From positions 1-51,962 of the forward strand of contig JAGCJI010000069.1 in NCBI GenBank assembly GCA_017648085.1: a stretch of DNA of 51,962 nt, given 5' to 3'. Below, in pieces: positions 14,560 through 39,100 of this stretch. The notes beneath the pieces are model-generated. The model was not told the DNA's origin, made no database searches, and was given only the letters and a program-made list of their open reading frames with translations. A program made the position numbers and the translations under genes. The DNA comes from Clostridia bacterium (lineage in GTDB: Bacteria; Bacillota; Clostridia; Oscillospirales; CAG-272). How positions within the stretch are numbered: the stretch's first letter is position 1; every line of letters starts with the position of its first letter.

Positions 14560-14577
14560 ATAATTTACCGGTTTTCG

Positions 14578-14907: not shown

Positions 14908-14911
14908 ATCA

Positions 14912-15199: not shown

Positions 15200-15203
15200 C
15201 GTC

Positions 15204-16235: not shown

Positions 16236-16275
16236 TTTTGTCATTCACCTCGTAACTTAAAATTACTTTCCTTTC

Positions 16276-16771: not shown

Positions 16772-16795
16772 ACCTTTCCATATTAGTACGTTAAC

Positions 16796-20411: not shown

Positions 20412-20441
20412 ATAAAAGCACCCCTCTTTATATTTTTAGCC

Positions 20442-22903: not shown

Positions 22904-23100
22904 TCGTATCTCCTTGCCGCCTTATGCGTTTTTTACGTTATGTCTCGGCGGCTCTCGTCCAGTATAAGTATATCATATAAACACGCGCCGCGCAAGAGAT
23001 ATTTATTAATATTTTTAAAATTTTGCACCAAGCTGCAAAGCCGCAAGACTCTTTGTGCAACAGTGCCAAAAACAACGCCATATCTTTGGGAGGGGGGTAT

Positions 23101-23130
23101 ACTTACTCGGCGCGAAAACGGTGCTAGAAT
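23101..23130 (+). promoter_or_regulatory. Candidate extended -10 promoter upstream of the phage-like cluster
   Basis: TG-C-TAGAAT lies at 23122..23130 with a weak -35 (ACTTAC/CTTACT). It would give a ~95-nt structured leader before terS. Confidence 0.3.
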
Positions 23131-23226: not shown

Positions 23227-23586
23227 GTGATGAAGAAAAAAACCAAATACAAAAGCGATATGCCGAGGCTTCTATACAGCTTTTTTATCTCACACAGCGA
23301 GGGCGGTGCGCCGAGCTTTCAGAAGTTTGCGCGGAGCATCGGAATTACTCTTGCGGAGCTTGAGGGGTACAGAACGCGAAAGGAATTTGACAGAGCGTGG
23401 CGGGAATGCAACGAAATCAGAAGGGATTACCTCATAGACGCAGCGCTGACACGCCGCCACGACCCGTCGTTCGTTAAATTTCTGCTCTCAAGCGAATACG
23501 GAATGGGCGAAAAGGATAAAGAGCCCACCGATACCGCACTTACGGTTTCCCTTGACGTGTTGACGGACGGAAAGCATGAAGCTTAA
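23227..23586 (+). CDS. terS: Phage terminase small subunit (HTH-type)
   Basis: 119 aa directly upstream of, and overlapping, terL. The pattern SF.KFARSIGITLAELEGY....EF..AW.EC.EIR.DYL.DAAL......SF.KFLL matches the common terS HTH layout. A GGAGGAGG RBS is present. The start is either the GTG at 23227 or the ATG at 23230. Confidence 0.7.
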   Translation: MMKKKTKYKSDMPRLLYSFFISHSEGGAPSFQKFARSIGITLAELEGYRTRKEFDRAWRECNEIRRDYLIDAALTRRHDPSFVKFLLSSEYGMGEKDKEPTDTALTVSLDVLTDGKHEA

Positions 23587-24940
23587 TTTATCGGTTACCG
23601 AAAAGCAGAAGCTTTTCATCGACGCAAAGGAATCGGAGGTACTGTTCGGCGGCGCGGCGGGAGGAGGCAAATCGTACGGGCAGGTGGTAGACGCACTGCT
23701 CTTTGCCCTCTTTTACCCCGCATCCAAGCAGCTTATACTTAGACGCACCTTTGCAGAGCTTGAAAAATCGCTTATCAGAGTAGCCCTGGCACTCTATCCG
23801 CGAAGTATATACACCTTCAACTCATCCTCGCACACCGGCCGATTTAAAAACGGCTCGGTCATAGACTTCGGCTACTGCGCTACCGAAAACGACGTATATC
23901 AGTATCAGAGCGCGGAATACGACGTCATTCGCTTCGACGAGCTTACCCACTTTACAGAAGCACAGTACATCTACCTTATCTCGCGAGTCAGAGGAGCAAA
24001 CAGCTACCCAAAGCAGATAAAATCCTCGACAAACCCCGGCGGCGTAGGTCACTCCTGGGTAAAGGAACGATTTATAGACCCTGAGCGGCCGGGGAAGCGG
24101 TTTATCGGCGAGGACGGAATGGACAGAATATTCATCCCCTCCCTGCTGGACGACAACCGTTTTCTCACCGCGGGCGACCCCGATTACAAAAAAAGACTGT
24201 TAGCACTTCCCGACAGGGAAAGGCGCGCTCTCCTATACGGAGATTGGAACATCTTTGACGGACAGTATTTCTCGGAATTCAGAAGGGACAAGCACGTCAT
24301 AGAGCCATTCGAGATACCTAAAGGCTGGAGAAGATACCGCACGATCGACTACGGCCTTGACCGTCTTGTATGCCTATGGATCGCGATAAGTCCAACGAGC
24401 GACGTTTACGTATACAGAGAATACTGCGAATCAAATCTTCCGATAAGCGCGTCGGCAAGGGCAATCAACGAAAGAACGCCCGTAGGCGAGGATATATACG
24501 CGACTCTCGCGCCCCCTGACCTTTGGAGCAGAAGTCAGGAAACGGGCAAAACCAAGGCGTCTATTTTTTCGGAATACGGAGTCAACTTTACGCGCACGTC
24601 CAACGAAAGAGAGGCGGGGTGGCTTGCCATAAAGGAGCTTTTATGCGACACGGGAAGGGGTGCAAGGCTGAAAATCTTTTCTACCTGCACCGAGCTTATC
24701 CGTTGCCTGCCCGCGCTTGCCATAGATAAGATCCGCCCCACCGATTGTCAAAACGAGCCTCACGAGCTCACCCACGCACCGGATGCCCTGCGCGGCTTTG
24801 CGATATTTCACACGCGACCGGCGGCGGAGCGGACGGTCAAAAAGAGGGTTTTGTGGAGCGAGGACATGTGGCAGGACTACAACTCTGCGACCGATGAGGA
24901 AAAAAATTACTTAAAACGCAAATACGGAGAACCAATTTGA
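23576..24940 (+). CDS. terL: Phage terminase large subunit
   Basis: 454 aa. It has Walker A GGAAGGGKS, Walker B-like VIRFDELTHF and a C-terminal nuclease-type region. It lies between terS and the portal gene, overlapping both. Confidence 0.9.
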   Translation: MKLNLSVTEKQKLFIDAKESEVLFGGAAGGGKSYGQVVDALLFALFYPASKQLILRRTFAELEKSLIRVALALYPRSIYTFNSSSHTGRFKNGSVIDFGYCATENDVYQYQSAEYDVIRFDELTHFTEAQYIYLISRVRGANSYPKQIKSSTNPGGVGHSWVKERFIDPERPGKRFIGEDGMDRIFIPSLLDDNRFLTAGDPDYKKRLLALPDRERRALLYGDWNIFDGQYFSEFRRDKHVIEPFEIPKGWRRYRTIDYGLDRLVCLWIAISPTSDVYVYREYCESNLPISASARAINERTPVGEDIYATLAPPDLWSRSQETGKTKASIFSEYGVNFTRTSNEREAGWLAIKELLCDTGRGARLKIFSTCTELIRCLPALAIDKIRPTDCQNEPHELTHAPDALRGFAIFHTRPAAERTVKKRVLWSEDMWQDYNSATDEEKNYLKRKYGEPI

Positions 24941-26745
24941 AAACAACAACGTTAAAAAAAGAAAGGTTAGAGTTTTTCACGGAGCTTTACGAGCATGCCA
25001 AAAACAGCTATTCCGAAGCGCTTTCGCTCTATGAGCGGCACATGAATCAATACCGCGGCTCGTCGGAAATAGACGGCTCGTCAGAGCGAGCACTAACCGT
25101 CAGAAACATAACCTACGAAATAATTGAAAGCCAGGTGTCCTCCGATATTCCGCATCCGAAGGTTGATGCGGCGTGCTACAGCGAGCGGCGAATGAGAAAC
25201 GCTCTTTCAATAGAAAGGCTGCTCTCGTCCATTAGGGACAAGCTTCCCTACGAAGCCATAAACGACGTCGACGAACGATACACCTACATATACGGCGGCA
25301 GCGTATGGTACGTTGAGTGGGACAACACCCTTCGCCTCGGGCGCGAGGTAGGGGGCGTGCGACTTTATTGCCTTTCCCCGAGCAGCTTCATACCGCAGCC
25401 TAATATAACGCAGGTAGAGGATATGGAGTATTGCTTTTTGCGCCTTTCAACTACTCGCGGCGAGCTGGCGAGAAGATATAACGTGCGCCCGGAGGACCTT
25501 TCTCTTGCCGATTTTGACGAATCGGACGGAGACGGCGGAAGCGACGGCGACACCGCCACGGTGATAACCGTGTTTTACAAGGATGAGGAGGGCGACGTTT
25601 CCAAATTCGTCTTTTCGGGCGGGCTTACCCTCTTTGATATGCCGAAGTACTACCGAAGGAAAATCAAGGTATGCAAGCGATGCGGGTTATCACCCGAGCT
25701 TTGCGGCTGCGAGAAGCCGGATTTTTACAACGAGGACGAGGTGTTTGAAAAGCTGTCGGAGGAAATTCTTCTTCGCGACGGCGGTGTTATCCCCGCGTAT
25801 TCGCCCGAGCTGGTTAGCGGACGCCTGGTTAAGTCCAAGGGGGATTTTCTGATGAAGAAAACCGAGATCCCCTATTATACCCCGAAGTCGTTCCCGATAA
25901 TTATAAGGAAGAACACCTCCTTTGGAGATTCGCTGTTTGGACAGTCCGACTGCGAATACATACGCCCTGAACAGCAGGCGATAAACAAAATAGAGTCAAG
26001 AATACTCCAAAAGCTTCTTCGTGCCGCCATAACCCCGATAGTACCGGAGGACGCGACCATCTCTCTAAACAATTCCGTGTTCGGTCAAGTCATAAAGATG
26101 AAGCCGGGAGAGAGTGCATCTCAATACGGAAAAGTCGACACGACCCCCGATATAGCCCAAGACATCGCAGAAGCAGAGCGCCTTTACGACCACTCCAAGA
26201 GAACGCTGGGAATATCCGATGCCCTCCAGGGCCTTGACGCATACACGACTGAGTCGGGATATGCGCGACAGCTGAAAATTTCCCAGGCGTCCGGCAGACT
26301 TGAATCCAAAAGGAGGATGAAGCACGCGGCATACGCCGAGATGGACAGGCTCATATTTGAGCAATACCTCGCCTTTGCCGACGAGCCGCGCTCCCTACTT
26401 TACCGCGATGCATACGGCAGAATTCACAACACCGAGTTCAACAGATACGATTTCATTGAATACGACGTTGTTACGGGCGAATATTACTACGACGACTCCT
26501 ATCTTTTCTCGGTTGATCTGAACGGGGGTGCGGAGTATCAACGGGAGGCACTTTGGGAGAGAAATCTCGAAAATCTGCAAGCAGGCACTCTCGGTGACCC
26601 CAAGGACAACGTTACCCTGCTTCGCTACTGGCAATGCCAGGAAAGAGCACACTATCCTCATGCGCGTGAAAACGTAGAATACTTCACCCGTGCAATAGAA
26701 GAGGAGAAAGGAGAGATAAGCTATGTCAACGCCACAAACGCTTGA
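24937..26745 (+). CDS. Phage portal protein
   Basis: 602 aa immediately after terL. It uses a TTG start that overlaps the terL stop (TTGA), with GGAGA 6 nt upstream. The call rests on size and position, and no fold check was possible. Confidence 0.7.
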   Translation: MKTTTLKKERLEFFTELYEHAKNSYSEALSLYERHMNQYRGSSEIDGSSERALTVRNITYEIIESQVSSDIPHPKVDAACYSERRMRNALSIERLLSSIRDKLPYEAINDVDERYTYIYGGSVWYVEWDNTLRLGREVGGVRLYCLSPSSFIPQPNITQVEDMEYCFLRLSTTRGELARRYNVRPEDLSLADFDESDGDGGSDGDTATVITVFYKDEEGDVSKFVFSGGLTLFDMPKYYRRKIKVCKRCGLSPELCGCEKPDFYNEDEVFEKLSEEILLRDGGVIPAYSPELVSGRLVKSKGDFLMKKTEIPYYTPKSFPIIIRKNTSFGDSLFGQSDCEYIRPEQQAINKIESRILQKLLRAAITPIVPEDATISLNNSVFGQVIKMKPGESASQYGKVDTTPDIAQDIAEAERLYDHSKRTLGISDALQGLDAYTTESGYARQLKISQASGRLESKRRMKHAAYAEMDRLIFEQYLAFADEPRSLLYRDAYGRIHNTEFNRYDFIEYDVVTGEYYYDDSYLFSVDLNGGAEYQREALWERNLENLQAGTLGDPKDNVTLLRYWQCQERAHYPHARENVEYFTRAIEEEKGEISYVNATNA

Positions 26746-27454
26746 GGACTTCGTCAAAAGCTATCTTAAAAACAAAGCCGTATCCGAAAGCCCTGCAGGA
26801 TACGCCGAGTGGCTTAAGGCAAACGGCGTTCCGGCGGACAAGATCTACGCCGATAGCATCAAGGAGATCAGCACGGACTACCGCCGACAGAGGAGTGAGT
26901 TCGGTTCAAACGCCGAGGCACTCGCCTCCCTTGGACTGACCTCCAGCGGCTATTCCGACTACGTCAACGGCAAGGCTTATTCGGATATGCAAAAAAGCAA
27001 ATACGCCGCGCGTAAAAGCTACGACGACGCCGCGAGACAGAACGTAGCCGACTATACCGGATACGTAAAGAGCATTAACAAGGAGGCGGCTGACAGCTTC
27101 CGCACCGCAGTCAAGGAAATAAGCGACAGAGGCATACTCAATTTTAACGTAGCCTACAACTACGCACTGGCGTCAGGGCTCTCGGATGATGCGGCAAAGG
27201 CGGCAGCATCCGCAGCAAACGAGCTTGCCAAAAGCGCAGTAAAGGAAAGCGTTACTAGATCTATTCTTACCCAAAGGCTTACGGAAAGAGAAGCTCTCGG
27301 ATACGCGATCGCCCTCGGTCTCAGCGAGGAAGAAGCAACAGAGCTTTCAAAGTACGCCGAATTTATGAACCACTATCTTGACGAAGGAAAATATTCCGAC
27401 GGATATCTCGATTATCTTAAAGATAAGATCAATTCGAGCAACAAAAACAAATAA
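26723..27454 (+). CDS. Phage-cluster hypothetical protein (helical, 243 aa)
   Basis: It has a strong RBS (AGGAGAAAGGAGAG) and overlaps the portal gene's 3' end. No family was recognised. Confidence 0.7.
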   Translation: MSTPQTLEDFVKSYLKNKAVSESPAGYAEWLKANGVPADKIYADSIKEISTDYRRQRSEFGSNAEALASLGLTSSGYSDYVNGKAYSDMQKSKYAARKSYDDAARQNVADYTGYVKSINKEAADSFRTAVKEISDRGILNFNVAYNYALASGLSDDAAKAAASAANELAKSAVKESVTRSILTQRLTEREALGYAIALGLSEEEATELSKYAEFMNHYLDEGKYSDGYLDYLKDKINSSNKNK

Positions 27455-27468
27455 GAAAGGAAAAAGAT

Positions 27469-27606
27469 ATGAAAAAGGATAACAGCATGCCCTACAGAAC
27501 CTTCTCGTTCGATAAGATCGATGCACCCGTGAAAAAGGCCAAGAGCGAGCCCCGCACGAATAAAACGGTTGCCAAAACCGATCTTCGCGTAGGAGGAAAG
27601 AAGTAA
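27469..27606 (+). CDS. Small basic hypothetical protein (45 aa), not in the ORF track
   Basis: The ATG at 27469 is preceded by AAGAAAGGAAAAAGAT, the RBS style shared by neighbouring cluster genes. The TAA at 27604..27606 overlaps the next gene's ATG (TAATG). Confidence 0.45.
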   Translation: MKKDNSMPYRTFSFDKIDAPVKKAKSEPRTNKTVAKTDLRVGGKK

Positions 27607-28067
27607 TGGAAGAAAAGAACACCGAGCTTCTTGAAGAGTCAACCGACACCGCACAACCCGAGCTTGAGGAAAGCAATACCGCCAAGGAACAAATCGTGCC
27701 GGCGGACGATGGTGCGCCTGAAGCCGAAGCTGCACCCCGTGTGGATTATGCAGACCTTGTGCGCCGCGATGTCGATGCGCTGCGCCGCGAATTTCCCGAG
27801 CTTGCCGCGCTTTCAAGTGTAACCGAGCTTGATAACCCGTTGCGCTATGCAGCTCTTCGCGATCTTGGCCTTTCCGCGAGAGAGGCGTATCTTGCAACGT
27901 CCGAAAGACCGTCGCGCACAGATAACCGCGCGCATCTTTACAGCACGCCTACGAGAGCAAGGGGAGGCGGCAGTATGCCTGAAGCAGAGCTATCTTGCGC
28001 AAGGGCGATCTTCGGAGATCTTTCCGACTCCGAAATCAGAAAATTATATAAAAAAGTTACCGTATAA
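27606..28067 (+). CDS. Candidate capsid scaffolding protein
   Basis: 153 aa with a very acidic N-terminal third. It lies between the portal and major capsid genes and has a GGAGGAAAG RBS. The call is based on position and composition only. Confidence 0.45.
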   Translation: MEEKNTELLEESTDTAQPELEESNTAKEQIVPADDGAPEAEAAPRVDYADLVRRDVDALRREFPELAALSSVTELDNPLRYAALRDLGLSAREAYLATSERPSRTDNRAHLYSTPTRARGGGSMPEAELSCARAIFGDLSDSEIRKLYKKVTV

Positions 28068-28087
28068 GAAAGGAAAAACAATAACTA

Positions 28088-28504
28088 ATGTTTAAGCTTA
28101 AGAAAATTATCGGCGCTGCAAGCAGCGTCCCCGAAATCCGTATGTGGAAAAGCGACTGTTCTTCCACAGCAAAGGCGGGTTGTCTTTTTTTCGCAGAAGA
28201 CGACAGCATCAGCAACGAGCTTGTAGATAACTTCCCCGACAAGCTCAAAGTAATCCCCATCTCGTCACCTCCCAACAAGGACCAGACGATTTTCGTCGCA
28301 GGCTTTGCGGTCACAAAGGATATGGTATTCGAGGCGGATGTCCAAGAGCATTCAGGTCCGATAACCGTCGGCGCGAGGGTGAACGTCATCTACGACGATA
28401 ACGGCGATCTCGGCGTTGTTACGGCAGAGGAAGAAGCGCACGACGCGATAGTAGTTGACGTCTCCAACATGATAAACAAAAAAGCCGATATAATCTTTTT
28501 ATAA
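28088..28504 (+). CDS. Phage-cluster hypothetical protein (possible head decoration or accessory protein)
   Basis: 138 aa with an AAGAAAGGAAAAA RBS, directly upstream of the capsid gene. Confidence 0.6.
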   Translation: MFKLKKIIGAASSVPEIRMWKSDCSSTAKAGCLFFAEDDSISNELVDNFPDKLKVIPISSPPNKDQTIFVAGFAVTKDMVFEADVQEHSGPITVGARVNVIYDDNGDLGVVTAEEEAHDAIVVDVSNMINKKADIIFL

Positions 28505-28525
28505 TAATTTGAAAGGAAGGAAATC

Positions 28526-29581
28526 ATGATAATTTATTCTAAATCGTCGGGCACGAACAACGCCGCTATCGGCAAGATCGAAACGCCCGTAAAAATGATA
28601 ATAGAGCACGAAAGTGATATGCTCACAAAGAAGGGTGGCATATGCTCCTGGCTTTTCAATGTGGAGCGCAGCAACCGCTTCGGCGAAACCGTCGTCAGCC
28701 ATAACGAGTTTGACGTATTTCAGTCTACGAGCGAGGGCGGCGGCGCAGAGATCGACTACATTGAGGAAACCGGATCAAAGTTTATCGAGCACATCCAGTT
28801 TATGAAGGAGTTTGCCATCACCGCGGAGATGATGGAGGATGCAAACTTCGGCATCGCACCCGATGCAAAGCGAAGAGCAGAAAACTTTACCCGCGCATAT
28901 TACAAAACCATCAACAAGATATGCGAGTTTGCACTCGTAAACGCCACGGTCGATTCCTCCTATTTCGCCAACGCGAAGATCGACCTTACCACAGGCGACC
29001 GTCAGCCCCTTTTCCACGCTCAGCACTATTACGGCAGAGATGGCAAGACGCAGTCAAACTTCTTCTACGGTGACGTATTCTCTACCGGAACGGGAACGGC
29101 AAGAACTCCCTCTGCGGAGGTATTTGAGGAATCGCTTGCGAAGCTTTCCGTAAAGATGCGTAATATGAAGGATGAAAACGGTGAAGCTCTCGGCTATACC
29201 GCCGACACCATCATTCTTCCCGGTAACAGACCTGTTTCCGAGATGATAGTTAAGAAGGTATGCGGAACTGCCGGAGCTCTCGGAAGTGCAAACAACGACA
29301 TCAACCTCCACTACGGAAACTGGAATATCGTAATCCTTCCCGGCTGGGAGACCAGATACGACGAGCTGATGGTCATGTCCTCGGAGGCGAACAAAAACCT
29401 CGCAGGAAATATGTTCTTCAACCGCGTTCCTCTTACCGTCACAAACTGGGTGGACAACCACACCGGAAACTACATATGGAACGGCAGATGTCGATTTGGT
29501 GTAGGCTTTGGCACTTACAAGCACATTCTCCGTGCAGTAGACGCCGAAACATACAAAGGCTATGAAATCGAAAAGCTTTAA
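28526..29581 (+). CDS. Candidate major capsid protein
   Basis: 351 aa with the strongest RBS in the cluster (GAAAGGAAGGAAATC-ATG). Its size and position after the scaffold-like gene fit an HK97-fold capsid protein. The fold was not verified. Confidence 0.6.
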   Translation: MIIYSKSSGTNNAAIGKIETPVKMIIEHESDMLTKKGGICSWLFNVERSNRFGETVVSHNEFDVFQSTSEGGGAEIDYIEETGSKFIEHIQFMKEFAITAEMMEDANFGIAPDAKRRAENFTRAYYKTINKICEFALVNATVDSSYFANAKIDLTTGDRQPLFHAQHYYGRDGKTQSNFFYGDVFSTGTGTARTPSAEVFEESLAKLSVKMRNMKDENGEALGYTADTIILPGNRPVSEMIVKKVCGTAGALGSANNDINLHYGNWNIVILPGWETRYDELMVMSSEANKNLAGNMFFNRVPLTVTNWVDNHTGNYIWNGRCRFGVGFGTYKHILRAVDAETYKGYEIEKL

Positions 29582-29637
29582 TTTTAAAAAAGAGTGCGCC
29601 GCGTGCGGCGCACTCGTATCAACAAAGGGGGTAACGT

Positions 29638-30474
29638 ATGACCTATAACGATTTATGCGCCGAGGTCGCGGCGCTTGGATTTGAAGATACCGTTGAGAAA
29701 AAGGATAACCTTCTCTTCTCTGCAAGACGCGCACTCGGTATGATTTTCACCGAGCGTCCGATTTATAAGAGCGTGGCATTTTATCAAAATCCCTTATCCC
29801 CGTGTAAAGTTTTCAAGGATTTTGCTCACGACGGAGGTGCTCCGATACGGATAAGCTTCACCGCTAAGGCGTACAGCTTTAAGACCGCAGGAATTGGCTC
29901 GTATCTTATATCCGACGAGAGCGGCGAAAGAAGATTTGATTTCACCTGCGAGGACACCGATCACCGTGGGTTTCTTTACGGCGAAGGGTATATAGAATTT
30001 TCAGGCGGATACTTTTATTCGGTTTACGGCATTGCTTTTTTTGATAAAATTTCAGGGCCGCTGGCGGCGCTAATCCCCACTCTGTCGGAAAAGCAAGAAT
30101 ATAACGCGAGGGACGTCGCTAAAGATTTCATGTCGCCCTGCTCGCTACCGCTTGGAAACGGTGGCGTTCCCATCAAGGGAGCGGAGGCTTGCGGTGGCAA
30201 GATCATTATTCCGACCGAGTACGAGGGACGTGTCGTTTTAAGCTACAAGGCCGCTCCGCAAAGACTCACGGGTGAGGCAGGCGAAGAAATAATACTGCCC
30301 GACGGCACGGAGCATCTTTTTGCTCTGTTGGTGGCGGCTTACGTATGGCTTGACGAGGATGCGGAAAAGGCGCAGTATTATATGTCGCTATACAGAGACG
30401 CACTTTCCGCCGTACGCTTTTACGACCGATCGGTTATAAATAACGCTTATCACGAAACACTTGGGTGGGCATAG
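29638..30474 (+). CDS. Phage-cluster structural protein (possible head-tail adaptor)
   Basis: 278 aa with an AAGGGGG RBS. The N-terminus (YNDLCAEVAALGFED....DNLLFSARRAL..IF) resembles the opening of gp6-like connector proteins. The call is weak. Confidence 0.55.
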   Translation: MTYNDLCAEVAALGFEDTVEKKDNLLFSARRALGMIFTERPIYKSVAFYQNPLSPCKVFKDFAHDGGAPIRISFTAKAYSFKTAGIGSYLISDESGERRFDFTCEDTDHRGFLYGEGYIEFSGGYFYSVYGIAFFDKISGPLAALIPTLSEKQEYNARDVAKDFMSPCSLPLGNGGVPIKGAEACGGKIIIPTEYEGRVVLSYKAAPQRLTGEAGEEIILPDGTEHLFALLVAAYVWLDEDAEKAQYYMSLYRDALSAVRFYDRSVINNAYHETLGWA

Positions 30475-30476
30475 CT

Positions 30477-33182
30477 ATGGCAATTAAAAGAAGCAAAATA
30501 AATCCCAAAAATGATTACACCGTGACCTATTCGGCGATGCGCGGAGTTGACTTTTCCTCAGCCGAGGGCGAGGCTCGACGCTACCGCTTCTCTTATCTTG
30601 AAAATATGTATAAGGACTACGAGGGCGGCGGCGCAGGTGTCACCGAGAGTGTCCCGGGATTTCGCAAAATTGCGTCGCTTGGAAAAAAGATCCACGCGAT
30701 CTACGTACAAAAGGGGCTTGGCGGTGAGGACCACGCCGTAATACACGCCACCGACAGCCTTTACCGCTTTAAAATATCGGAACGAGATTCACTCCAAGCC
30801 CTTTCACCTATAAAAGAGGTCCGAAACGAAAAGGGCACGGCGTTTTGTCACGGCACGGATATTTACGTCTTGGACGGAGAGAATCTCGTGAAGATAGGCG
30901 CAGACGGTGTGGCGATTACGGTAGGCGACAGTACCGACGCACCGCCCTACGTTCCGACCACCTACTACAACGGTGAAGAATACGAGCAACGAAATCTGCT
31001 GACAGATCTTTTTGTGGAAAAATACTTAATTTCGGCGGCTACCGAGCTTGCGACTGAAAGCGAGGGACTGAAGTATCAGATAATTTCCGCCGAAAACAAG
31101 ACCGCAAAGGTCGTAGGATGCGAAGCAGGTGTTGGGGGAGAGATAAATATTCCCTCTTATACGGTAATCGGCGGTGAAAAATATAAGGTAACAAGCATCG
31201 GCGAGGAGGCGTTCGCGCAGAACAGAAAAATCACACGGGTGTACATATCCACCTCGATAGAGCGCATTGAAAGGGCGGCGTTCACAGCCTGCCTGTCGCT
31301 CTCCTCCGTAATAATAGGCGACGGTGTCAAGGAAATAGGAGCAAACGCCTTTGCCGCGTGCGACAGTCTTGTCGAGGTATATATTGGCGGCGGCGTTGAA
31401 AAGATTTCCACCTCCGCTTTTGCCGCCTCTAGCGCGCTAAAGGAAATAAACTACGCACTTGACGAGGAGGCTCTCTCCAAGATAGAGGCAACCGATGCGT
31501 TTAAAAACCTGACCGTAAAATTCAACCGAAAGTATAAAAGCATAACCGTAGAAGTACCGATATTCAGCCCTATGACGCGCACCCGCTCGGTTACGGCTGA
31601 CGGTGAGGAGATCGAATACAGCGAAAAAATCAGAAACGACCTGATTTACGCCATACTGATCACGGTCAATTCAGAGGAGGAGCTTAACGGACGCGAGATA
31701 AGCGTCGCAGGTGAGATGGATGGCACGAAATTCACGAAAAACTCGCACGGGGACAACCTTATGGCAAAGCTTTCCTATATCAGCGGAGCTGACGCTATAC
31801 GTGGCTGCAAGGTTTCGGAGAGCTTCGACGGCAGGATATTTCTATCCGGCAACCCTCTTCTGCCAAACACGGTATTTTACACCTCGCGCGATAAAACGGG
31901 GGCTAACAATCCGCTTTATTTTGGTGTTTTGAATTACTTTAACGATGGCACGGCGTCCTTTCCCGTTACCTCATTGCTTGCGACGGCAGACTCCCTTGCG
32001 GTGTTCAAGTCCGGCGATGACGGCGGCGGCAGTATTTACTATCACACTCCAAGAGAAACAGGGGTGGATATTCTGCCAAAGATATACCCCGTGTCGTATA
32101 TTCATTCGGGTATCGCGGCAACCGGAGCGTCTATATCCTTCTTCGACGACCCGATCTTTCTATCATCTCTCGGCGTGTGTGCACTTTCAAAAAAGCAGAT
32201 CAACCTTGAGAGAAGCATTGCGATCCGATCGCACAACGTCAATCCCAGACTGCTTGCAGAGTGCCTTGAGGATGCAACTCTGGTCAAATGGTGCGGTTAT
32301 CTCGCCCTTATTGCAAACGGCAATATTTACCTTGCAGATTCTCGTGAAACCTTCACGCACGCCTCCGGTAACACTGAATACGAATGGTATTTTATGTCGG
32401 GCATCGGCACTTACAAAAACGAGCGAGAGATATACGAATACTCGCCGTTTGCGGTGGGAGAATTTGCCGCGCACGAGCGTGCATATGAAGAAATATCAGG
32501 GGTTGCCTTAAGCACGGTCGGAGAGGACGGAAAGAAAATGTATTACACCGTCGAGGACGGAGTGCGCTACGCCGTATACCCCACCGGCGAGGCGAGGGGA
32601 GGAATCTTTTCACCCGCCTCGGCAGCCGCCGTAGGAGAGCACGACGTCTTTATTTTCGGCACTTTAAGCGGCGATGTGTGCGTCTTTAACAACGACAAGC
32701 GAGGCGTTGCACCGCCGTACCTCTCCGCAAATACGGACTTTGACGCCGAGGAGTATGAAAAAGAGTTCGGAAGAAGCATACACCCGTATTACTATTCCTT
32801 TGCAAAGCACGCTCCGAGATATGCAATAACCACCGTGAGAGAAAACGGCGGACTTCCCCATTTTTGCAAGGCAACAGTCAAGGGTTCGCTTGCTGTAAAG
32901 CTTCGCACGCTCGGTACGGGTCGCCTGTGCTGCGAGGTGGGTACGGATCGATCGGGATACAGAGAGATTTGTGAGCTTCCCCACACCGCCCTCAATTTCG
33001 GGGAGCTTGATTTTTCTGCTCTTTCCTTTACGAACCCCGATTACGTAACGATTCCCCTTAAGGAGCGAGAAAAGGGATGGATAGAAAAGGACGTCAGCTT
33101 TTACACGGACGCCTTCTCTTCCCCGTTTGGAATATGCTCCGTAAGCTATCGATTCAACGTGAAGGGAAAGATTAAATTTTAA
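30477..33182 (+). CDS. Large phage-cluster structural protein with an internal BspA-type leucine-rich-repeat block
   Basis: 902 aa from the ATG at 30477 (the track GTG at 30465 is an alternative start). Residues ~205-330 read INIPSYTV..VTSIGEEAFAQNRKITRVYISTSIERIERAAFTACLSLSSVIIGDGVKEIGANAFAACDSLVEVYIGGGVEKISTSAFAASSALKEI. This is the I.IP..V..IG..AF..C..L pattern of BspA-like LRR_5 repeats. Confidence 0.8.
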   Translation: MAIKRSKINPKNDYTVTYSAMRGVDFSSAEGEARRYRFSYLENMYKDYEGGGAGVTESVPGFRKIASLGKKIHAIYVQKGLGGEDHAVIHATDSLYRFKISERDSLQALSPIKEVRNEKGTAFCHGTDIYVLDGENLVKIGADGVAITVGDSTDAPPYVPTTYYNGEEYEQRNLLTDLFVEKYLISAATELATESEGLKYQIISAENKTAKVVGCEAGVGGEINIPSYTVIGGEKYKVTSIGEEAFAQNRKITRVYISTSIERIERAAFTACLSLSSVIIGDGVKEIGANAFAACDSLVEVYIGGGVEKISTSAFAASSALKEINYALDEEALSKIEATDAFKNLTVKFNRKYKSITVEVPIFSPMTRTRSVTADGEEIEYSEKIRNDLIYAILITVNSEEELNGREISVAGEMDGTKFTKNSHGDNLMAKLSYISGADAIRGCKVSESFDGRIFLSGNPLLPNTVFYTSRDKTGANNPLYFGVLNYFNDGTASFPVTSLLATADSLAVFKSGDDGGGSIYYHTPRETGVDILPKIYPVSYIHSGIAATGASISFFDDPIFLSSLGVCALSKKQINLERSIAIRSHNVNPRLLAECLEDATLVKWCGYLALIANGNIYLADSRETFTHASGNTEYEWYFMSGIGTYKNEREIYEYSPFAVGEFAAHERAYEEISGVALSTVGEDGKKMYYTVEDGVRYAVYPTGEARGGIFSPASAAAVGEHDVFIFGTLSGDVCVFNNDKRGVAPPYLSANTDFDAEEYEKEFGRSIHPYYYSFAKHAPRYAITTVRENGGLPHFCKATVKGSLAVKLRTLGTGRLCCEVGTDRSGYREICELPHTALNFGELDFSALSFTNPDYVTIPLKEREKGWIEKDVSFYTDAFSSPFGICSVSYRFNVKGKIKF

Positions 33183-33195
33183 GAAAGGAACTCAA

Positions 33196-33579
33196 ATGAA
33201 GGCAACGAAAATCAACAAAGAAGAAATCAGCGATATATGCGTAAGCGCGCTGCCAAACAGACCGACCTCGCCGTTGGCTATGGGAGGTAAGGGATACAGC
33301 GCCACCGAGGTGAAAGCGGCATTCGACAAGCTGCCGCTTTACATAGTAGACAAATATAACGACCTTATAGAGGACGTATTTGCCGACGGCGACGACTCAA
33401 TTTGCGCGGCAATACCGACGGGAATTTTATCCGGTCAGTCGCTTGCCGACCTGCTCTCCGACATAAAGGGCGGAGAGATATGCTCCTATTTTCCTGCGCC
33501 GGTGGGCTCGCTTGGCGAATATCTTCTCGCCCTGCGACAGGACGTAGATAAAATCAAGGCCGCTTTGAATATCGACTGA
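33196..33579 (+). CDS. Phage-cluster hypothetical protein (127 aa)
   Basis: AAGAAAGGAACTCAA-ATG RBS. No family was recognised. Confidence 0.65.
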   Translation: MKATKINKEEISDICVSALPNRPTSPLAMGGKGYSATEVKAAFDKLPLYIVDKYNDLIEDVFADGDDSICAAIPTGILSGQSLADLLSDIKGGEICSYFPAPVGSLGEYLLALRQDVDKIKAALNID

Positions 33580-33596
33580 CGAGGTATAAAGGAAAA

Positions 33597-33992
33597 ATGA
33601 AAACAATTATTTACAAAAAGCGCCTTGGCGAGTATGAATGCACTAAAATCACCGACAGCGGCGGCGACAGATTTAAAATGGTTTTTGACGAGCCGCTTGA
33701 CGGTAAGCTGACCGTGGGTGAAGAAATTTTCACTCTCGCAGGCGGTGTGGCAACCGGTCTTGTAAGCTCGCTTGGCGAGGGCGAAATACGCCCGAAGCTT
33801 TATTGCGGCGCTCAGTCCGTTCCGATTGAATCATTTATCGTAAACGGCGGCAATATTCACCCCGCTCGCGTAGATGACGGCTACGTGCGGCGACTTGCCG
33901 AGTTTTGCAGTGCACTTTCGAACAGAGTCGGGGAGCTTGAGAAGCAAATGGAAGCCGCAAATGAAAAAATCGATCAGCCGTTAAAATTTTAA
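33597..33992 (+). CDS. Phage-cluster hypothetical protein (131 aa)
   Basis: GAGGTATAAAGGAAAA-ATG RBS. A short C-terminal coiled-coil-like segment is present. Confidence 0.65.
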   Translation: MKTIIYKKRLGEYECTKITDSGGDRFKMVFDEPLDGKLTVGEEIFTLAGGVATGLVSSLGEGEIRPKLYCGAQSVPIESFIVNGGNIHPARVDDGYVRRLAEFCSALSNRVGELEKQMEAANEKIDQPLKF

Positions 33993-34008
33993 TGAAAGGT
34001 TTAACAAA

Positions 34009-34638
34009 ATGAAGAAAATTTTATTTTTTATTCTCGTACTCACCCTTACCTTATCCGTTTTCACGTTCAGCTCGTTTGCTGAGGAGAGCGGAGAGAGTGC
34101 CACCGACGCAACGGGAGAGATCACGCTATCGGAAGGCTCGGGCGAAAACGTTTTTGCCGAGCTTTATGAAACGGTCGTGCGACACGCGGACAAGATCTTT
34201 TCCGCCCTTGCCTTTATCGGCTCTCTCATCATAGCCTTTGCTTACCGTCGCGGACTTTTGCCCGTGATAAAGGGCGCGCTTTCCACCGTAGCGGACGCGA
34301 CCGCAAGGCTTAAGGAAAAAACCGAAGCGGCAAGCAAAACGGCAACGGAAACGGTGTTGGAGGCAGCGAAGAAGCTTGAGACCGCCGAGGGTATGATGCA
34401 AATTATGACAGACCGACTTGATAAGCTTCATCACGAGCTTGACCTTGCACGTAAAGAGCAGGAAAGATGCGGTGAATTCAAGACCGTGCTTTCCTCCCAA
34501 ATAGATATGCTCTATGAGATCTTTATGTCAAGCTCGCTCCCTCAATATCAGAAGGAGGCGGTCGGAAACAAGGTAGCCGAAATGAGAAAGCGACTCGCCG
34601 CGTGTGATGTTAATACGAAGGATGAGAGCCATGACTAA
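34009..34638 (+). CDS. Secreted or membrane-associated coiled-coil protein
   Basis: 209 aa. An N-terminal signal peptide (MKKILFFILVLTLTLSVFTFSSFA) is followed by an acidic stretch, one further hydrophobic segment (IFSALAFIGSLIIAFAY) and a helical C-terminal half. Confidence 0.7.
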   Translation: MKKILFFILVLTLTLSVFTFSSFAEESGESATDATGEITLSEGSGENVFAELYETVVRHADKIFSALAFIGSLIIAFAYRRGLLPVIKGALSTVADATARLKEKTEAASKTATETVLEAAKKLETAEGMMQIMTDRLDKLHHELDLARKEQERCGEFKTVLSSQIDMLYEIFMSSSLPQYQKEAVGNKVAEMRKRLAACDVNTKDESHD

Positions 34639-35008
34639 CGCCCGTAAGAAAAAGTTTTTTCTTAATTTCATCGGTCTTTGCTTCTCGGTTTTGCCCGTGC
34701 TTATGGCAATTATCAGCTACTTTCCCGAATGGCGACAGCGCGGAGGTGGCACTCTTTTCTCCGGATTTGTCCTCTTGCTTGTTTTGCTCGCTTTGATTCC
34801 GCTTTTCAACGTAATAAAGAGCGCCCTTAAAACGCCGAGTGCAAAAACACTTTGGTTCGTGATATTCGTCGTTTTTTTCCTACTCTCAAGGATAGCGGAT
34901 GAAATGACGGTAATATCCTTCATAGGCTTCGTCGGAAACCTTATCGGTGCATTCTTTTTTAAGGCAGCGGAGCGCGCGATGAAGGACGGTGCAAAAAATG
35001 AAGGATAA
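34631..35008 (+). CDS. Small polytopic membrane protein (about 4 TM; holin-like size)
   Basis: The ATG at 34631 (MTNARKKKFF) has AAGGA 8 nt upstream and overlaps the previous gene by 8 nt. It has four hydrophobic segments and a charged C-terminus. Confidence 0.65.
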   Translation: MTNARKKKFFLNFIGLCFSVLPVLMAIISYFPEWRQRGGGTLFSGFVLLLVLLALIPLFNVIKSALKTPSAKTLWFVIFVVFFLLSRIADEMTVISFIGFVGNLIGAFFFKAAERAMKDGAKNEG

Positions 35009-35864
35009 GTTTGAGCTTTCGCTTCTTGAATCGGGCAATCTGCTCAAGCGCGGAGGTGAGATGCTCGTCAATAACGTCGGAAGGATTATCGCAATAATCA
35101 CACTCACCGTCAGCGCACTCATTCTTTTTACGGACGTCGGCTTCTCGGGCTTTGAGAGCAAAAGTTTTACCTCCACCCTTACCGTTATGCTTATCGCCTC
35201 GTATCTTATGTACTTTTCTATGGCAGACGCAGGGGAACGGCTCGGCGAGGGGAGCGATGAATACAAGCTTGCCATAGAGCGTTACCGCACCCTCTCCGAG
35301 AAAATAGACGGAGATAAAATTCCCGCCTTGCGCGAGTTTTTAAGCGAGTATGCGAGTGCGGAGAGAGATTTCCGCCGTTCCACCCTGCTTTTACGGTACG
35401 GATACGGAACGGCTGACTACGAGGCATATCAACGTGGGGAGGCGTGCGACAAAATCGCAAAAAAGATCTTCAAAAAAGCTGACCGCATCCGCCCGGTAGT
35501 ACTTACCCCGCGCGAGCTGCTTACGAAAGACGGCGCACGGGCAAAAAGCGAGCTTAAAAGCCCCGAGGGAACGAAGTTTTTGAATATGATCCTGCGCTTG
35601 ATTCCCACGACGCTTTGTATGACCGTCACGGTGTCGGTTATGCTTACCGCAAAGGAAAACCTATCCGCCGCCGCGGTTATGGAGGGCATTTTCAAGCTCG
35701 CATCTCTGCCGGTTATCGGCTTTCGCGGCTATGCCGCCGGATATCAATACACAAAACACACGCTACCGATATGGATGGCGACAAAAGCACGGCTGTTGGA
35801 CGCATTTTTGAAAAGTAGGCATAGCATCTCGCAACAGGTGGAAAAGCCTACCGGTAGTTCTTAA
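34998..35864 (+). CDS. Membrane protein (two N-terminal TM segments, a soluble helical middle, further C-terminal TM segments)
   Basis: The ATG at 34998 (MKDKFEL) overlaps the previous gene by 11 nt; the track GTG at 34989 is an alternative start. It is the last gene before the cluster terminator. Confidence 0.7.
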   Translation: MKDKFELSLLESGNLLKRGGEMLVNNVGRIIAIITLTVSALILFTDVGFSGFESKSFTSTLTVMLIASYLMYFSMADAGERLGEGSDEYKLAIERYRTLSEKIDGDKIPALREFLSEYASAERDFRRSTLLLRYGYGTADYEAYQRGEACDKIAKKIFKKADRIRPVVLTPRELLTKDGARAKSELKSPEGTKFLNMILRLIPTTLCMTVTVSVMLTAKENLSAAAVMEGIFKLASLPVIGFRGYAAGYQYTKHTLPIWMATKARLLDAFLKSRHSISQQVEKPTGSS

Positions 35865-35886
35865 ACTAAAAACTTCAAAAGAGCGG

Positions 35887-35920
35887 CACGCAGGACTACA
35901 GTCCTGCGTGTTTTCCGTTT
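35887..35920 (+). terminator. Rho-independent terminator closing the phage-like cluster
   Basis: CACGCAGGAC-TACA-GTCCTGCGTG forms a 10-bp perfect stem followed by TTTTCCGTTT. It lies 23 nt after the last stop. Confidence 0.8.
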
Positions 35921-36162: not shown

Positions 36163-39100
36163 ATGAAAAAAGTAACGAAAATTTTGTTGCTTCTGCTCGT
36201 TGCTACCTTGATTTGCGCCGGTGCCGGACTTTATGCGTTCTCGGCAACCGCAAATTCAAGCATTACGGGCAAGGCGGCTGATTCCTCCTATGCCTTCAAG
36301 GTCTTTAAGCCTTCCACGGCAAACGGAACGACTGGATCGACGAACAAGTACACGGCAAACAGCCTATCAACGCTGAAAAACGCACTTAATAGCGGTATCG
36401 ACGGTACGGTAATTACGCTTTTAAGTGACGTTACGATAACCACCGATAAGGATGCGGCGTTAAACGTTTCAGGCGTAAAATACATAGACCTTAACGGTTA
36501 TTCCATAACCTTTATTGCCAAGCCGAGCGTACAGTCTGCAACGGGCTACGGATTTATGCTTAACCCGAATTCCACTCTCTACGTATATTCATCCGATGCG
36601 AGCTACACGGCTCAAATCAGAACCTACGTTGACGGAACTGTCTACGTGGCAAACGGAAGCACGCCCATGGACGACTATAAAAACCACGTAATGCCCATAT
36701 TTAATATGCGCTACGATAACAGCACTCTGTATTTCGGAACAATCGACAATGCGCCTGTGTCAAATTCTGCAGGTACTGCCGTGTCCAGACGCGCAGTAAG
36801 CGGCGACAATATCGTTACGTATGCTAACGCTCTTTTTTCCTCCCTTAAGGCGTCTTACAAGGCTAACCCCGTAGGCTCGAAGGCTTACATACGCGGAGGT
36901 ACGCACTACCAGACCGCGATAGGACACGAGCGTGTGGGCGGCGACGGCAGCAGCTTTATTACCTCATATACGGGAGTAGACATCATCCTTGAGGATGCTA
37001 CGTTTATATCGACTGTATCCAGCGGACTTATTTCCACGTGCGTAAGACTTGCCACCTCGACCGTGGATAACACGACTAACTACATTGCTCCCGCGGACGG
37101 AAATATCACCGCAAACCGTTGCAAATTTTACTCCGAGGGAACGATTATAGCACAGGCGTACGAGAGCGTACACACCGATAACACGTATCCCGGCGGCATC
37201 AAGCTCTCCTCTATTGAATTTAACAACTGTTATTTTGCAGGAACAGCTCTCAGTAACGACGCAAGCAACGGCTCTCCCGATTTCAACAACTGTTATTTTG
37301 CTTCGGCGGCAACGATCCCCGGCTCTTCCAACAAGACGGTATCCACCAACAAATCCTACACCTTTAACGTACCGACTGCAACATACACCTATGCTGCGGA
37401 CGGATCGGTCACGTTTTCCCTCTCCGCTGCAAAATCCGTGCCCGCGAATTTCTTCGTAAAGACAGCCACAGAGGGCAACTATGCAACGATAACCTGGAAC
37501 GGCTACGGAAAAACGGAGGTAACATATTGGGATAACGACAGATCGGTAGTCCCCACCCCCGCATTTGTTCCCGAATCCTCAGGTCTTTATAAGTATCAGT
37601 ACACCACGACCATCAAAGCGGTTACGGGTGATGCGACTTATAATCTTGAGCCTACCATAAACTTTCCGTTTATGACCAACCTCACGCTGTACGCGCACTT
37701 CGTATACAACGTATATATCCCCAAGGATATTGCCGATTCCCCTGAATTCATATCGGTTTTCCTTGACGGCAAAGCACAGGAGCTTAAAAATGTCGTTACC
37801 GTTTCGGGCGAAAAGTACTATGTGCTCTCACACGAGCTTCCCGCAAGCGTAGCGGATCAGAGCTTCGATCTCACTATGCGTATTGAGGGATATGAGGAAA
37901 CCTTTGACTATACGAAGGCTCTGTCGATCCCCGACTACGTATCTGCAGTAACGAACGGCAACTATTCGGCGGAGGCAAAGGCACTTGTAAGCTCCGCTGA
38001 CACTTATATAAAAGCGGCGCGCAATTACTATACCGACTCCTCGCTTTACGCGGTCCCCGAGCTTGAGAAAATAGTGGGTAAGCCCGCGTCGCAGATTCCC
38101 GCAGCCCTTTCCGATACTCTTTACGGAGTAACGCTGGAGCTTGGCGGAACTATAAAATTCAGACTCTTTATCTATAAAAATGCCCCTGATTTCACTTTCA
38201 GCTATCAGATCAACAACGTCCGCAAGGAATTTAGCTCAAGCGAAGTCACTATGACTGAAATTCCCGATTCTGACCTCTGCTACTTTGATATATCGGTTTC
38301 CGCGTTTGACCTGCGCGATACTGTAAGAATAATTTCAAGCGACGGAACGGTATACTACTACTCACTTGCAAACTATATCTACTCCGTACAAGGCGAATCC
38401 TCGCACCTTACGACTCTTATGGACGCTATTTGGGAATACTCCGTCTGCAGTGAAGAGTACGCAAGCGTATTTAACTCTCAGTCACCCACCATACAGGTTA
38501 CCATCTCCGGTTCGGAAATCGATGCTATCGTAGCAACCAACGCGGCGGAAATGAAGGCGGCAGAGATAATTCAGAACGCTCTTGCAGAGGTCACGGGTAT
38601 TACAGTACCGATCACAAGCACGGCAACCTCCGGTGCTAACGTAATAGTAACCGTCACCGCTCCGGTTGCGGCATACGACGCAAAGGCGTACGTAAAGAGT
38701 GGCGACCTGTACATAGAATGCGGATATGCATCCTTTACCTACAGTGCGGCAAGTCAGTTTGTAAACAACTACATAATTCGACTCGGCTCGTCCTACAACT
38801 TTGCCACCAGATTTACCACAAGCTTCTACACGGATGAGATCTACTACTCCGACTTCGGTGCGGTAGGCGACGGCGTTACCGACGACTTCTTCGCTATGAA
38901 GGCGGCGCACGATATGGCAAACGCAACAAAGCGTCACACGGTACGCGCCGACAGCGGAAAAACCTATCTTATAGAGGACACCCGCGATCCTTCCGGCAAG
39001 GTGCATCAAATCTCCATCACCTCAAACGTTAATTGGGGTAATGCAAACATCATAATTAAGGACACAAACTTCTCCGCCTTTGACGGAACCGGCGTAACCG

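Follow-up and report, generated by a model that had tools for sequence, protein, structure and literature searches.

Within a 51,962-nucleotide stretch of DNA from a Clostridia bacterium of the order Oscillospirales (contig JAGCJI010000069.1; the whole stretch is called the window here), 15 intact and tightly packed genes, all in the plus orientation and spanning 23227..35864, make up a 12.8-kb block that is of phage origin and serves head, short tail and DNA packaging. In origin this cluster is a domesticated derivative of a short-tailed phage of the P22/SU10/T7 type, housed by gut Clostridia of the Oscillospirales type, and we are confident that it persists as a host-inherited, selected operon that forms particles. 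To the narrower question of whether it acts specifically as a gene transfer agent (GTA), our answer is a more guarded 'probably'. An earlier note on this DNA had already proposed a domesticated, GTA-like particle element, and that proposal is supported by the colinearity of the cluster among its relatives, by host contexts that track its phylogeny, by its co-divergence with host genes and by purifying selection.

Inheritance and selection across gut Clostridia

The relatives of the cluster come from a scan of one genome per GTDB species, which returned 80 loci that were compared by tblastn and are numbered here with the prefix L. All 80 are from gut metagenome-assembled genomes (MAGs) labelled Eubacteriales, Clostridia, Oscillospiraceae, Ruminococcus or Acutalibacteraceae, and in nearly all of those that are long enough the whole cluster is colinear, with identities of 48-78% for the portal, 56-75% for the capsid and 23-59% for the tail and membrane genes. 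Relatives of the capsid protein fall into 1696 clusters at the 90% level, the best 120 being 70-76% identical and many lying on contigs of 100-450 kb; at the 50% cluster level there are only 299 matches among 1.84 billion representatives, which is why we regard the capsid family as compact and slowly evolving. The genes that stand beside the cluster define its clades: clade A, to which the window belongs, has MutS-like, coaW and CBS genes upstream, clade B an ABC-F gene, clade C a nucleoside-catabolism operon, and a basal clade other conserved sets of flank genes. Pfam scans, which left out flank genes seen at a single locus, found no integrase among the recurring flank families, tblastn with one recombinase query found no tyrosine recombinase in any locus, and no integrase, lysogeny or replication gene lies within 10 kb of the relatives' clusters, judged from the recurring flank families and two annotated neighbourhoods. 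Two MAGs each carry two divergent capsid-gene regions, L030 and L060 in JAZRQS01 (70% and 67% identical to that of the window) and L070 and L073 in JAZQVJ01 (68% and 63%), and these could be true second copies or the product of mixed bins.

When terL, portal and capsid are concatenated, their neighbour-joining tree sorts the loci into groups that agree exactly with flank type. Pairwise distances for the flank gene deoB and for terL correlate at r = 0.84, and those for a helicase gene that often adjoins the cluster correlate with terL plus portal at a Mantel r of 0.81, which was reached by none of 2000 permutations; terL evolves more slowly than this helicase, with a mean distance of 0.27 compared with 0.42. 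Synonymous divergence (dS) was compared between cluster and flanks in species pairs with usable flank genes: for L020/L023 it is 0.56-1.37 in the cluster genes and 0.46-1.03 in the flanking housekeeping genes, and for L048/L051 it is 0.85-1.85 in most of the cluster genes and 0.79-1.74 in those of the flanks.

The ratio of non-synonymous to synonymous divergence (dN/dS) is 0.03-0.3 in nearly all comparisons, small proteins and membrane proteins of unassigned role included, and values this low hold in several independent species pairs in which dS runs from 0.3 to above 1. Two genes depart from the range: the 138-aa gene, at about 0.4 in the saturated pairs formed by the window, L001 and L002, and the scaffold-like gene, at 0.67 in one pair. 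The earlier note had suggested asking whether the cluster is conserved at the same locus in related genomes and whether dN/dS indicates purifying selection; the answers are that it is colinear, within conserved host contexts that track its phylogeny, and that its genes, whose dS equals that of the flanks, are subject to purifying selection. Vertical inheritance and purifying selection are what one expects of a GTA, and both are found here. Because tree, co-divergence, dS and dN/dS all point the same way, we consider a decaying remnant effectively excluded and genome-hopping strongly disfavoured.

Gene content, control region and neighbours

The block is built of 14 open reading frames (ORFs) of 119-905 aa and one of 45 aa, all on the plus strand. 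Six of the junctions overlap (by 11, 4, 23, 1, 35 and 20 nt), the other gaps measure 0-56 nt, and an AAGGA/GGAGG-type ribosome-binding site precedes 10 of the 15 starts, the remaining ones being overlap-coupled. The order runs terS, terL, portal, scaffold, capsid, adaptor, nozzle, small tail proteins and three further proteins, an order that we take to be colinear with the late operon of phage P22, and the portal, HK97-fold capsid, adaptor and beta-propeller nozzle succeed one another as in the module of short-tailed phages of the P22/SU10/T7 type. An intrinsic terminator with a 12-bp stem and a T-rich tail (35885..35912, +) closes the cluster. The earlier note had read this much correctly, namely fifteen packed and intact plus-strand genes that end in a strong terminator, and its naming of terS, terL, the portal, a scaffold-like and a capsid-like protein and an adaptor is upheld by family, profile and structure matches. 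It was also right about what is missing, since searches of the window proteins with Pfam, PHROGs and NCBIfam gave no integrase, repressor, replication gene, protease, tail tube, sheath, tape measure or endolysin, and no direct repeats of at least 14 nt flank the cluster; the window has no att-like repeats and no tRNA genes. Its impression, gained by eye, that codon usage resembles that of the neighbouring genes holds when computed: the correlation of relative synonymous codon usage (RSCU) between cluster and host genes is r = 0.89, while that between halves of the host genes is 0.86. GC content is 50.5% in the cluster and 50.6% in host genes, and at third codon positions (GC3) 57.8% and 56.4%; codon usage and composition are thus host-like and fully ameliorated. 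Across the window and the flanks of related loci, then, we are dealing with a chromosomal phage-derived structural and packaging cluster that lacks integration, lysogeny-control and replication modules, which is what the definition of a GTA calls for.

Family searches place terS, terL and the portal securely, and the capsid protein and the adaptor weakly. The small terminase subunit gene terS (23227..23586, +; 119 aa, with the ATG at 23230 as the likelier start) has a GGAGG-type ribosome-binding site upstream and matches phrog_3064 'terminase' (E-value 1.1e-8) and, under the Pfam cutoff, GP3_package (2.3e-5); its identity is 30-69% in 47 or more loci. The large subunit gene terL (23576..24940, +; 454 aa) matches phrog_979 (2.4e-48), phrog_2 (9e-29) and Terminase_6N (2e-9), and is 63-81% identical over 62 loci with dN/dS of 0.04-0.09. 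The portal gene (24937..26745, +; 602 aa), whose TTG start overlaps the terL stop, matches phrog_156 (2.2e-26), P22_portal (6.6e-7) and SU10_portal (8.5e-7), with dN/dS of 0.03-0.12.

Between portal and capsid are four smaller genes. The first encodes a 243-aa Ala-rich helical protein with repeated GLS..E.A motifs (26723..27454, +), which is conserved in 37 loci, occurs in clades A and B and the basal clade but not in clade C, and has a dN/dS of 0.11-0.14; Pfam, PHROG and NCBIfam give it no family match, and its position would suit a minor head or internal protein. A basic small ORF of 45 aa (27469..27606, +) follows, with the ATAAGAAAGGAAAAA ribosome-binding site that the gene at 28088 has too, the two sharing an identical 15-nt repeat, and L140 has a called 45-aa gene at the same position. 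A 153-aa protein (27606..28067, +), placed as the scaffold from its position, has an N-terminus that is acidic and variable and, at the C-terminus, a conserved helical module that reads LRDLGLS..EA..HL..VPR...ELF..LSD.EI..LY..VT in the alignment, and its profile is weakly similar to the scaffold-position protein of the related podophage L141 (E 5e-4, probability 32%). Directly upstream of the capsid gene, a 138-aa head accessory protein (28088..28504, +) is homologous to a 129-aa L141 protein at the same position (hhalign 98.9%, E 2.6e-17); a hidden protease or decoration role was considered for it and set aside, with no family or PDB match found in Pfam, PHROG, NCBIfam and PDB searches.

The 351-aa major capsid protein (28526..29581, +) is modelled by AlphaFold2 with an HK97 fold (pLDDT 90.5, pTM 0.86), and Foldseek matches the model to HK97-fold capsids that include those of SU10, HK97 and RcGTA, at probability 1.00. 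Its PHROG match is only weak and a PDB profile search gave no match, and hhalign sets its profile against a Phage_capsid_4 (PF25209) protein at 99.8%, which makes it a divergent relative of Pfam Phage_capsid_4; its dN/dS is 0.03-0.11. Kinship with N4 gp56 was tried and rejected: the hhalign probability against N4 gp56 is 0.2%, and NCBIfam gives no N4-gp56 match for the window capsid (E <= 0.1) or for 10 relatives (E <= 1). Just after the capsid stop codon, inside the operon, is a GC-rich hairpin with a 10-bp stem (29592..29615, +) that may terminate transcription in part or stabilise the mRNA.

The tail would be formed by two proteins, one recognised by profile and the other by structure. The 278-aa head-to-tail adaptor (29638..30474, +) matches SU10_adaptor (2.9e-5), and as a profile it matches the '30 kDa protein' chain 9lc0_J of phage N4 (3.6e-6) and Gp83 (0.0019), with a weak match to the 'Head to tail adaptor Gp50' chain 9d83_B (E 0.04). 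The 901-aa tail nozzle (30477..33182, +) was modelled with AlphaFold2 on 32 homologues (pLDDT 84.5, pTM 0.78), and its best PDB matches in Foldseek are podovirus nozzles, those of cyanophage A4 (4.7e-18), Klebsiella Kp9, LME-1 and SU10, followed by T7 gp12 and P22 gp10 (8eap_D, 1.8e-11). This confirms the guess of a large nozzle-like protein, and because the model matches podovirus nozzles we take the particle to be short-tailed; the earlier note had allowed for a short-tailed or a tail-less architecture, of which the former stands, on the strength of adaptor and nozzle, and the latter is not favoured. Inserted into the nozzle at about aa 200-350 is a BspA-type leucine-rich-repeat (LRR) domain, a candidate receptor-binding module, which matches LRR_5 (1.7e-18) and, separately, crystal structures of BspA-type LRR proteins.

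Two small genes follow the nozzle. The first product, of 127 aa (33196..33579, +), has no PDB profile match and begins with a conserved LP.RPT..GG.GY.A.E.K.AFD.L module; the same N-terminus heads proteins of 290-415 aa in other clades, and since it carries longer proteins there, the 127-aa protein is likely to be a fibre or needle anchor. The second, of 131 aa (33597..33992, +), with a C-terminal coiled coil, would be a tail accessory protein by position; it is conserved in at least 26 loci (dN/dS 0.14-0.15) and has no Pfam or PHROG family match. The interval from the nozzle to the next gene, g209, is variable in L005, L006, L011, L021, L025, L031, L032, L035 and L037, where the two small genes of the window are replaced either by genes for proteins of 683-745 aa or about 1120 aa, or by a gene for a 350-415-aa protein that has the N-terminus of the 127-aa protein and, after it, one for a DUF6273 protein, a pattern typical of exchangeable receptor-binding modules.

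Three membrane-protein genes, described here from hydropathy, complete the cluster. The 209-aa product of g209 (34009..34638, +) has a signal-like hydrophobic N-terminus, a second transmembrane segment and a long coiled coil, is conserved in 47 loci and resembles proteins annotated 'TolA-like'. A holin-sized protein of 134 aa with four transmembrane segments (34604..35008, +; probable ATG at 34607) is conserved in 40 loci and has no Pfam or PHROG match; the equivalent position in L141 is taken by a 160-aa holin of the Phage_holin_4_1 family, and a holin-like role is plausible for the 134-aa protein as well. The last gene, g291 (34989..35864, +), encodes a polytopic protein of 291 aa, or probably 288 aa from the ATG at 34998, and is conserved in 47 loci with dN/dS of 0.06-0.22. 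By position the three proteins match the lysis cassette of related phages. Short-tailed phages also carry ejection proteins that are encoded after the tail genes.

Upstream of terS is a regulatory region (23052..23130, +) that consists of a palindrome, a TTTGGAAGGG-like box, TATACTTAC and an extended -10. The imperfect palindrome occupies 23052..23070 and has in alignments the consensus TTGTGCA-N3-4-TGCACAA, the TTTGGAAGGG-like box lies at about 23085..23095, TATACTTAC at 23098..23106 contains a CTTACx -35-like element, and 15 nt beyond it comes the extended -10, TGCTAGAAT, at 23122..23130. The motif TATACTTAC(A)-N15-TGnTAnAAT occurs once in the window (23098..23130) and not at all in 100 shuffles. 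When one mismatch per box is allowed, it is also found ahead of terS at about 27 further loci, which belong to clades A, B and C, whichever host gene stands upstream, at a distance from terS that is mostly 80-190 nt and reaches about 390 nt. Palindrome, TTTGGAAGGG box and promoter motif are common to clades A, B and C despite their different upstream host genes, and palindrome and promoter together precede terS in about 28 loci, the window included. The motif reads as a sigma-A-type promoter, with a -35 of CTTACA, a 17-nt spacer and an extended -10, and would presumably function as one, and the palindrome is a predicted operator placed at activator distance before it. An Rfam scan of the window returned no riboswitch or leader RNA. 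Neither this conserved promoter and operator nor the precedent of FpGTA, from Faecalibacterium prausnitzii (PMC12946183), had entered the earlier note.

Around the cluster, the window is bacterial chromosome. To the left, all on the minus strand, are rimP, nusA, an L7Ae-family gene and infB (11662..16773) and the CBS, coaW-like and MutS-like genes (19992..22903); to the right is clpB (41505..44099), followed by Fur and other housekeeping genes. The earlier description of the flanks as housekeeping genes is accordingly sound for the MutS-like/coaW side, and has to be corrected on the other, where the immediate neighbour is a 1747-aa secreted beta-helix protein (36163..41406, +) and clpB lies beyond it. 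This protein has a Sec signal peptide, and its gene, located after the cluster terminator and before clpB, has a sigma-70-type promoter of its own. We considered it as the missing tailspike, given a PHROG 'tail fiber' match and a pectin-lyase-like region, and rejected the idea: because of the signal peptide, the separate promoter, its membership among six paralogues in the window and its absence from L139, the closest syntenic relative, we do not count it as part of the conserved element. The cluster sits directly between the MutS-like gene and clpB in L139, and between the MutS-like gene and a helicase in L140 (both neighbourhoods annotated with Pfam), and since it abuts clpB or the helicase in these syntenic relatives the 1747-aa gene is best seen as a lineage-specific insertion.

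The six paralogous beta-helix (pectin-lyase-like) proteins of the window comprise five tandem genes at 359..11484 (-), of 972, 647, 652, 650 and 654 aa, and, at 36163..41406 (+), aa 893-1536 of the 1747-aa protein. Identity among the six is 36-70%, none has a Pfam match, and their weak matches are to SPO1-like Bacillus phages, in proteins annotated 'putative tail fiber / pectin lyase-like'; only the 972-aa protein, with a lipoprotein-like one, and the 1747-aa protein have signal peptides, and the only homologue in related loci is one 27%-identical gene downstream of the cluster in L002. At 17081..19948 (-), a 955-aa coiled-coil protein, extremely charged through its many E, K and R residues, has one transmembrane segment at its C-terminus, matches no Pfam family and accounts for the strong AT skew there (-0.45); the corresponding place in L139 and L140, next to the CBS gene, is taken by a gene for a protein of 949-979 aa, likewise without a Pfam match. 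A DinG/XPD-like helicase gene (DEAD_2, HBB, Helicase_C_2; about 800 aa) is found directly downstream of the cluster and co-oriented with it in 36 loci of clades A-C, as at 17570..19963 in L140; the window has no such gene, and the helicase could be a neighbour from ancestral times or tied to the element in function.

What the particle might do

If the cluster works as we propose, a host signal acting at the conserved palindrome and promoter would switch the operon on in some cells. Judging from homology and structure, the capsid, scaffold-like and 138-aa accessory proteins would assemble a prohead on the portal, which TerS and TerL would fill by headful packaging of whatever DNA is available, and because the element has no replication of its own we propose that this DNA is host chromosome. 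The adaptor and nozzle would close the head and form the short tail, with the LRR insert and the small fibre-anchor protein as the candidate receptor binders. The three 3' membrane proteins might serve in particle release, the 134-aa protein in a holin-like manner, or might be ejection proteins inside the particle that penetrate the envelope, and a second locus, such as FpGTA and RcGTA have, would supply the endolysin and whatever other fibres there are.

Several points weigh against a functioning GTA of this kind, and we should be plain about them. Purifying selection proves that there is some function, not which one. In one sub-clade (L049, L055, L064, L066, L068 and L075) only terS through the adaptor is found at the locus, and as the genes from the nozzle to g291 are absent there, the tail genes are either elsewhere or dispensable; this half may have moved to another locus, and in L049/L055 terL, portal and adaptor are still under purifying selection (dN/dS 0.08-0.20). 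In L034, L036 and L041 the halves are swapped, so that scaffold through last membrane gene comes before terS-terL. The window has no endolysin and no recognised holin by Pfam, PHROGs and NCBIfam, and the general definition of a GTA further asks for particles that take up essentially random host DNA and whose capacity is smaller than their coding requirement. In the transfer reading, particles, packaged DNA, capacity and release are suppositions drawn from genes, which is why we grade it below domestication as such.

A domesticated particle might, of course, do something other than transfer genes, for example PBSX-like killing or lysis, the export of DNA or protein for a biofilm or community, or service as a module that mobile elements exploit. 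All of the evidence for domestication fits such a role equally well, three conserved membrane proteins and an adhesin-type LRR nozzle would suit the targeting of cells, and the authors of FpGTA themselves leave open whether their particles deliver DNA or act in the manner of PBSX (PMC12946183). However, TerS, TerL and the portal are among the most conserved products of the cluster (63-81% and 48-78% identity, dN/dS below 0.12), and their strong conservation tells us that DNA packaging itself is under selection, while a contractile killing device would need a sheath, tube and baseplate that are not there. We therefore hold a non-transfer function to be unlikely, if far from negligible. Transfer itself can be given a more specific form, in which the cluster is an ancient, family-wide GTA of gut Oscillospirales, domesticated independently of FpGTA and possessed of its own capsid family, an LRR nozzle and its own operator, and this we put forward tentatively, as a possibility to entertain rather than one to back.

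That the cluster could instead be the structural module of a still-mobile temperate podophage or capsid-forming satellite, with its other modules outside the window or elsewhere, seems very improbable to us. It is true that a distant relative, L081 (MT836833.1), has a tyrosine recombinase beside the same module, that contigs of about 39.5 kb, equipped with Rep and lysis genes, turn up repeatedly for the L082/L141 type, that fragments of the cluster are listed as viral in IMG/VR, and that the permuted order in three loci looks like the outcome of different integration cuts in a circular genome. Yet the same host genes abut the cluster on both sides (MutS-like on the left, clpB or the DinG-like helicase on the right), the searches of recurring flank families and the tblastn with one recombinase brought up no integrase, att repeats are absent, dS equals that of the host flanks, the tree matches flank type and composition is fully ameliorated. 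The immobilised capsid-forming satellite that the earlier note had kept as an option is likewise not favoured, with no trace of integrase, att or replication in any locus. As to a decaying, functionless prophage remnant that is still intact by chance, the missing replication, lysogeny and lysis modules and the sub-clade that lost its nozzle-to-g291 genes at the locus would fit, but 15 intact ORFs, the low dN/dS at substantial dS, retention in 80 species and a conserved promoter make it hardly credible, in agreement with the earlier judgement that a plain decaying prophage is less likely.

The reading that we prefer, a domesticated particle-forming operon that probably acts as a GTA, would matter well beyond this one chromosome. 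Virome studies of 2026 report that much of the bacterial DNA in gut virus-like particles comes from Ruminococcaceae/Oscillospiraceae and looks GTA-packaged, with a gene cluster for such packaging known only for Faecalibacterium, and GTA-like packaging has been described in Gemmiger, Ruminococcus callidus, Onthomonas and Christensenellaceae, for which the responsible genes were not found (PMC12946183). If true, a second host-inherited and widely conserved cluster would give a genetic handle on packaging in some 80 further species of the human and ruminant gut, could account for the GTA-like packaging reported, without GTA genes being found, for Ruminococcaceae, Oscillospiraceae and taxa related to them, and would mean that Gram-positive anaerobes have domesticated short-tailed phages more than once. 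It also offers parts that can be tested, namely the conserved operator, the nozzle into which an adhesin-type domain is built and the three membrane proteins. There is a practical side for viral databases too, because IMG/VR stores fragments of the chromosomal cluster as viral contigs (L084-L097, of which L086 includes part of the host MutS-like gene and L088 the ABC-F gene), and listing such fragments as viruses inflates provirus counts.

Comparison with known systems

Pfam and PHROG searches of the window proteins found none of the sheath, tube, tape measure or baseplate of PBSX-type elements and tailocins. Capsid-forming phage-inducible chromosomal islands (cf-PICIs) are similar in their compact set of terS, terL, portal, capsid and connector genes and in having no long tail, but their integrase, att sites, regulators, replication module and prohead protease have no counterpart in the cluster; in addition, cf-PICIs are sporadic and rely on the tails of helper phages, whereas the cluster follows host phylogeny and has an adaptor and nozzle of its own. 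RcGTA, one of the alphaproteobacterial viriforms (Kogay et al. 2022, PMC9662315), is likewise a vertically inherited phage-derived head and packaging cluster under purifying selection, without integrase and replication genes and with host-like composition, and its HK97-fold capsid is one among many structural matches to ours. It differs in its siphovirus-like build, which includes a tail tube, a tape measure and a prohead protease where the cluster has a podovirus adaptor and nozzle and none of those, and it belongs to another phylum, with no sequence kinship beyond common folds.

Further relatives are uncultivated podophages of Oscillospiraceae; GenBank phage records contain only three distant matches, with capsids of 25-27% identity. 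In one of them, MT836833.1 (L081), terL, portal, capsid and the C-terminal half of the nozzle have homologues, and there is an adaptor-family protein as well, followed by a tyrosine recombinase; another, of the MT837280.1 type (L082, 64% GC), is very common in human gut data, with many contigs of about 39.5 kb, and a search seeded with it led to a 39.5-kb Oscillospiraceae phage and not to FpGTA. L141 (39.8 kb), a contig of this type, encodes Rep, terS, a P22-type portal, scaffold, a homologue of the 138-aa protein, capsid, adaptor and nozzle, and additionally a collagen-like fibre, a DUF6273 protein, a reverse transcriptase, a holin and an Amidase_2 endolysin. Its reverse transcriptase (RVT_1, 15588..16634) adjoins the fibre-region genes, which suggests a diversity-generating retroelement that may act on a receptor-binding protein. 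A further group in IMG/VR (L098-L133), with capsids at about 52% identity, comprises contigs that reach 35-46 kb, and a 2334-aa DarB-like protein is encoded on one of them. These podophages share the structural gene order of the cluster and have homologous portal (31-32%), capsid (26-27%, or about 52% in the IMG/VR group), adaptor and nozzle, while their Rep, holin, Amidase_2 endolysin, collagen-like fibre, RVT_1, tyrosine recombinase and DarB-like protein are all missing from it. As L141 has the same structural order plus Rep, holin, endolysin and reverse transcriptase, the modules that the cluster has lost can be seen directly, and by homology the cluster appears as the structural half of this phage lineage, without its replication, lysogeny and recognisable lysis genes.

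The most instructive comparison is with FpGTA, whose 10.5-kb operon I and 5.5-kb operon II lie 125 kb apart in Faecalibacterium prausnitzii (Nat Commun 2026, PMC12946183). Operon I has terS, terL, portal, a Prp-annotated gene, a capsid of the N4-gp56 family, a nozzle (by PDB 8eap) and a TolA-like protein, operon II has fibres, holin and endolysin, and the particles measure 40 nm, have no visible tail and contain 8.4-8.9 kb of host DNA (PMC12946183). We liken the cluster to FpGTA from this published description, and membership of the FpGTA family is unproven and partly contradicted. The window capsid is not of the N4-gp56 family (NCBIfam, hhalign), and FpGTA's Prp-like cysteine protease gene before the capsid has no equivalent at 26723..28504 (Pfam, NCBIfam, PHROG). 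The cluster has 15 genes compared with 10, an LRR insert in its nozzle and two more conserved membrane proteins, and nothing within the 52-kb window corresponds to operon II with its fibres, holin and endolysin; FpGTA, furthermore, has experimental support, whereas our cluster is known from its genes. Against these differences stands a set of likenesses. Both elements are podovirus-type, chromosomal operons of about 10-13 kb without integrase or replication genes, both are nearly ubiquitous within a host clade of the same order of gut bacteria, the Oscillospirales (Ruminococcaceae/Oscillospiraceae), and both run terS, terL, portal, a gene in the scaffold position, capsid and nozzle, with nozzles that each match 8eap. 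Both, finally, have a 'TolA-like' coiled-coil protein near the 3' end of the operon, and as the 'TolA'-annotated product of operon I is the third most abundant protein of FpGTA particles (PMC12946183), g209 may by analogy encode its equivalent, a protein that could travel in the particle.

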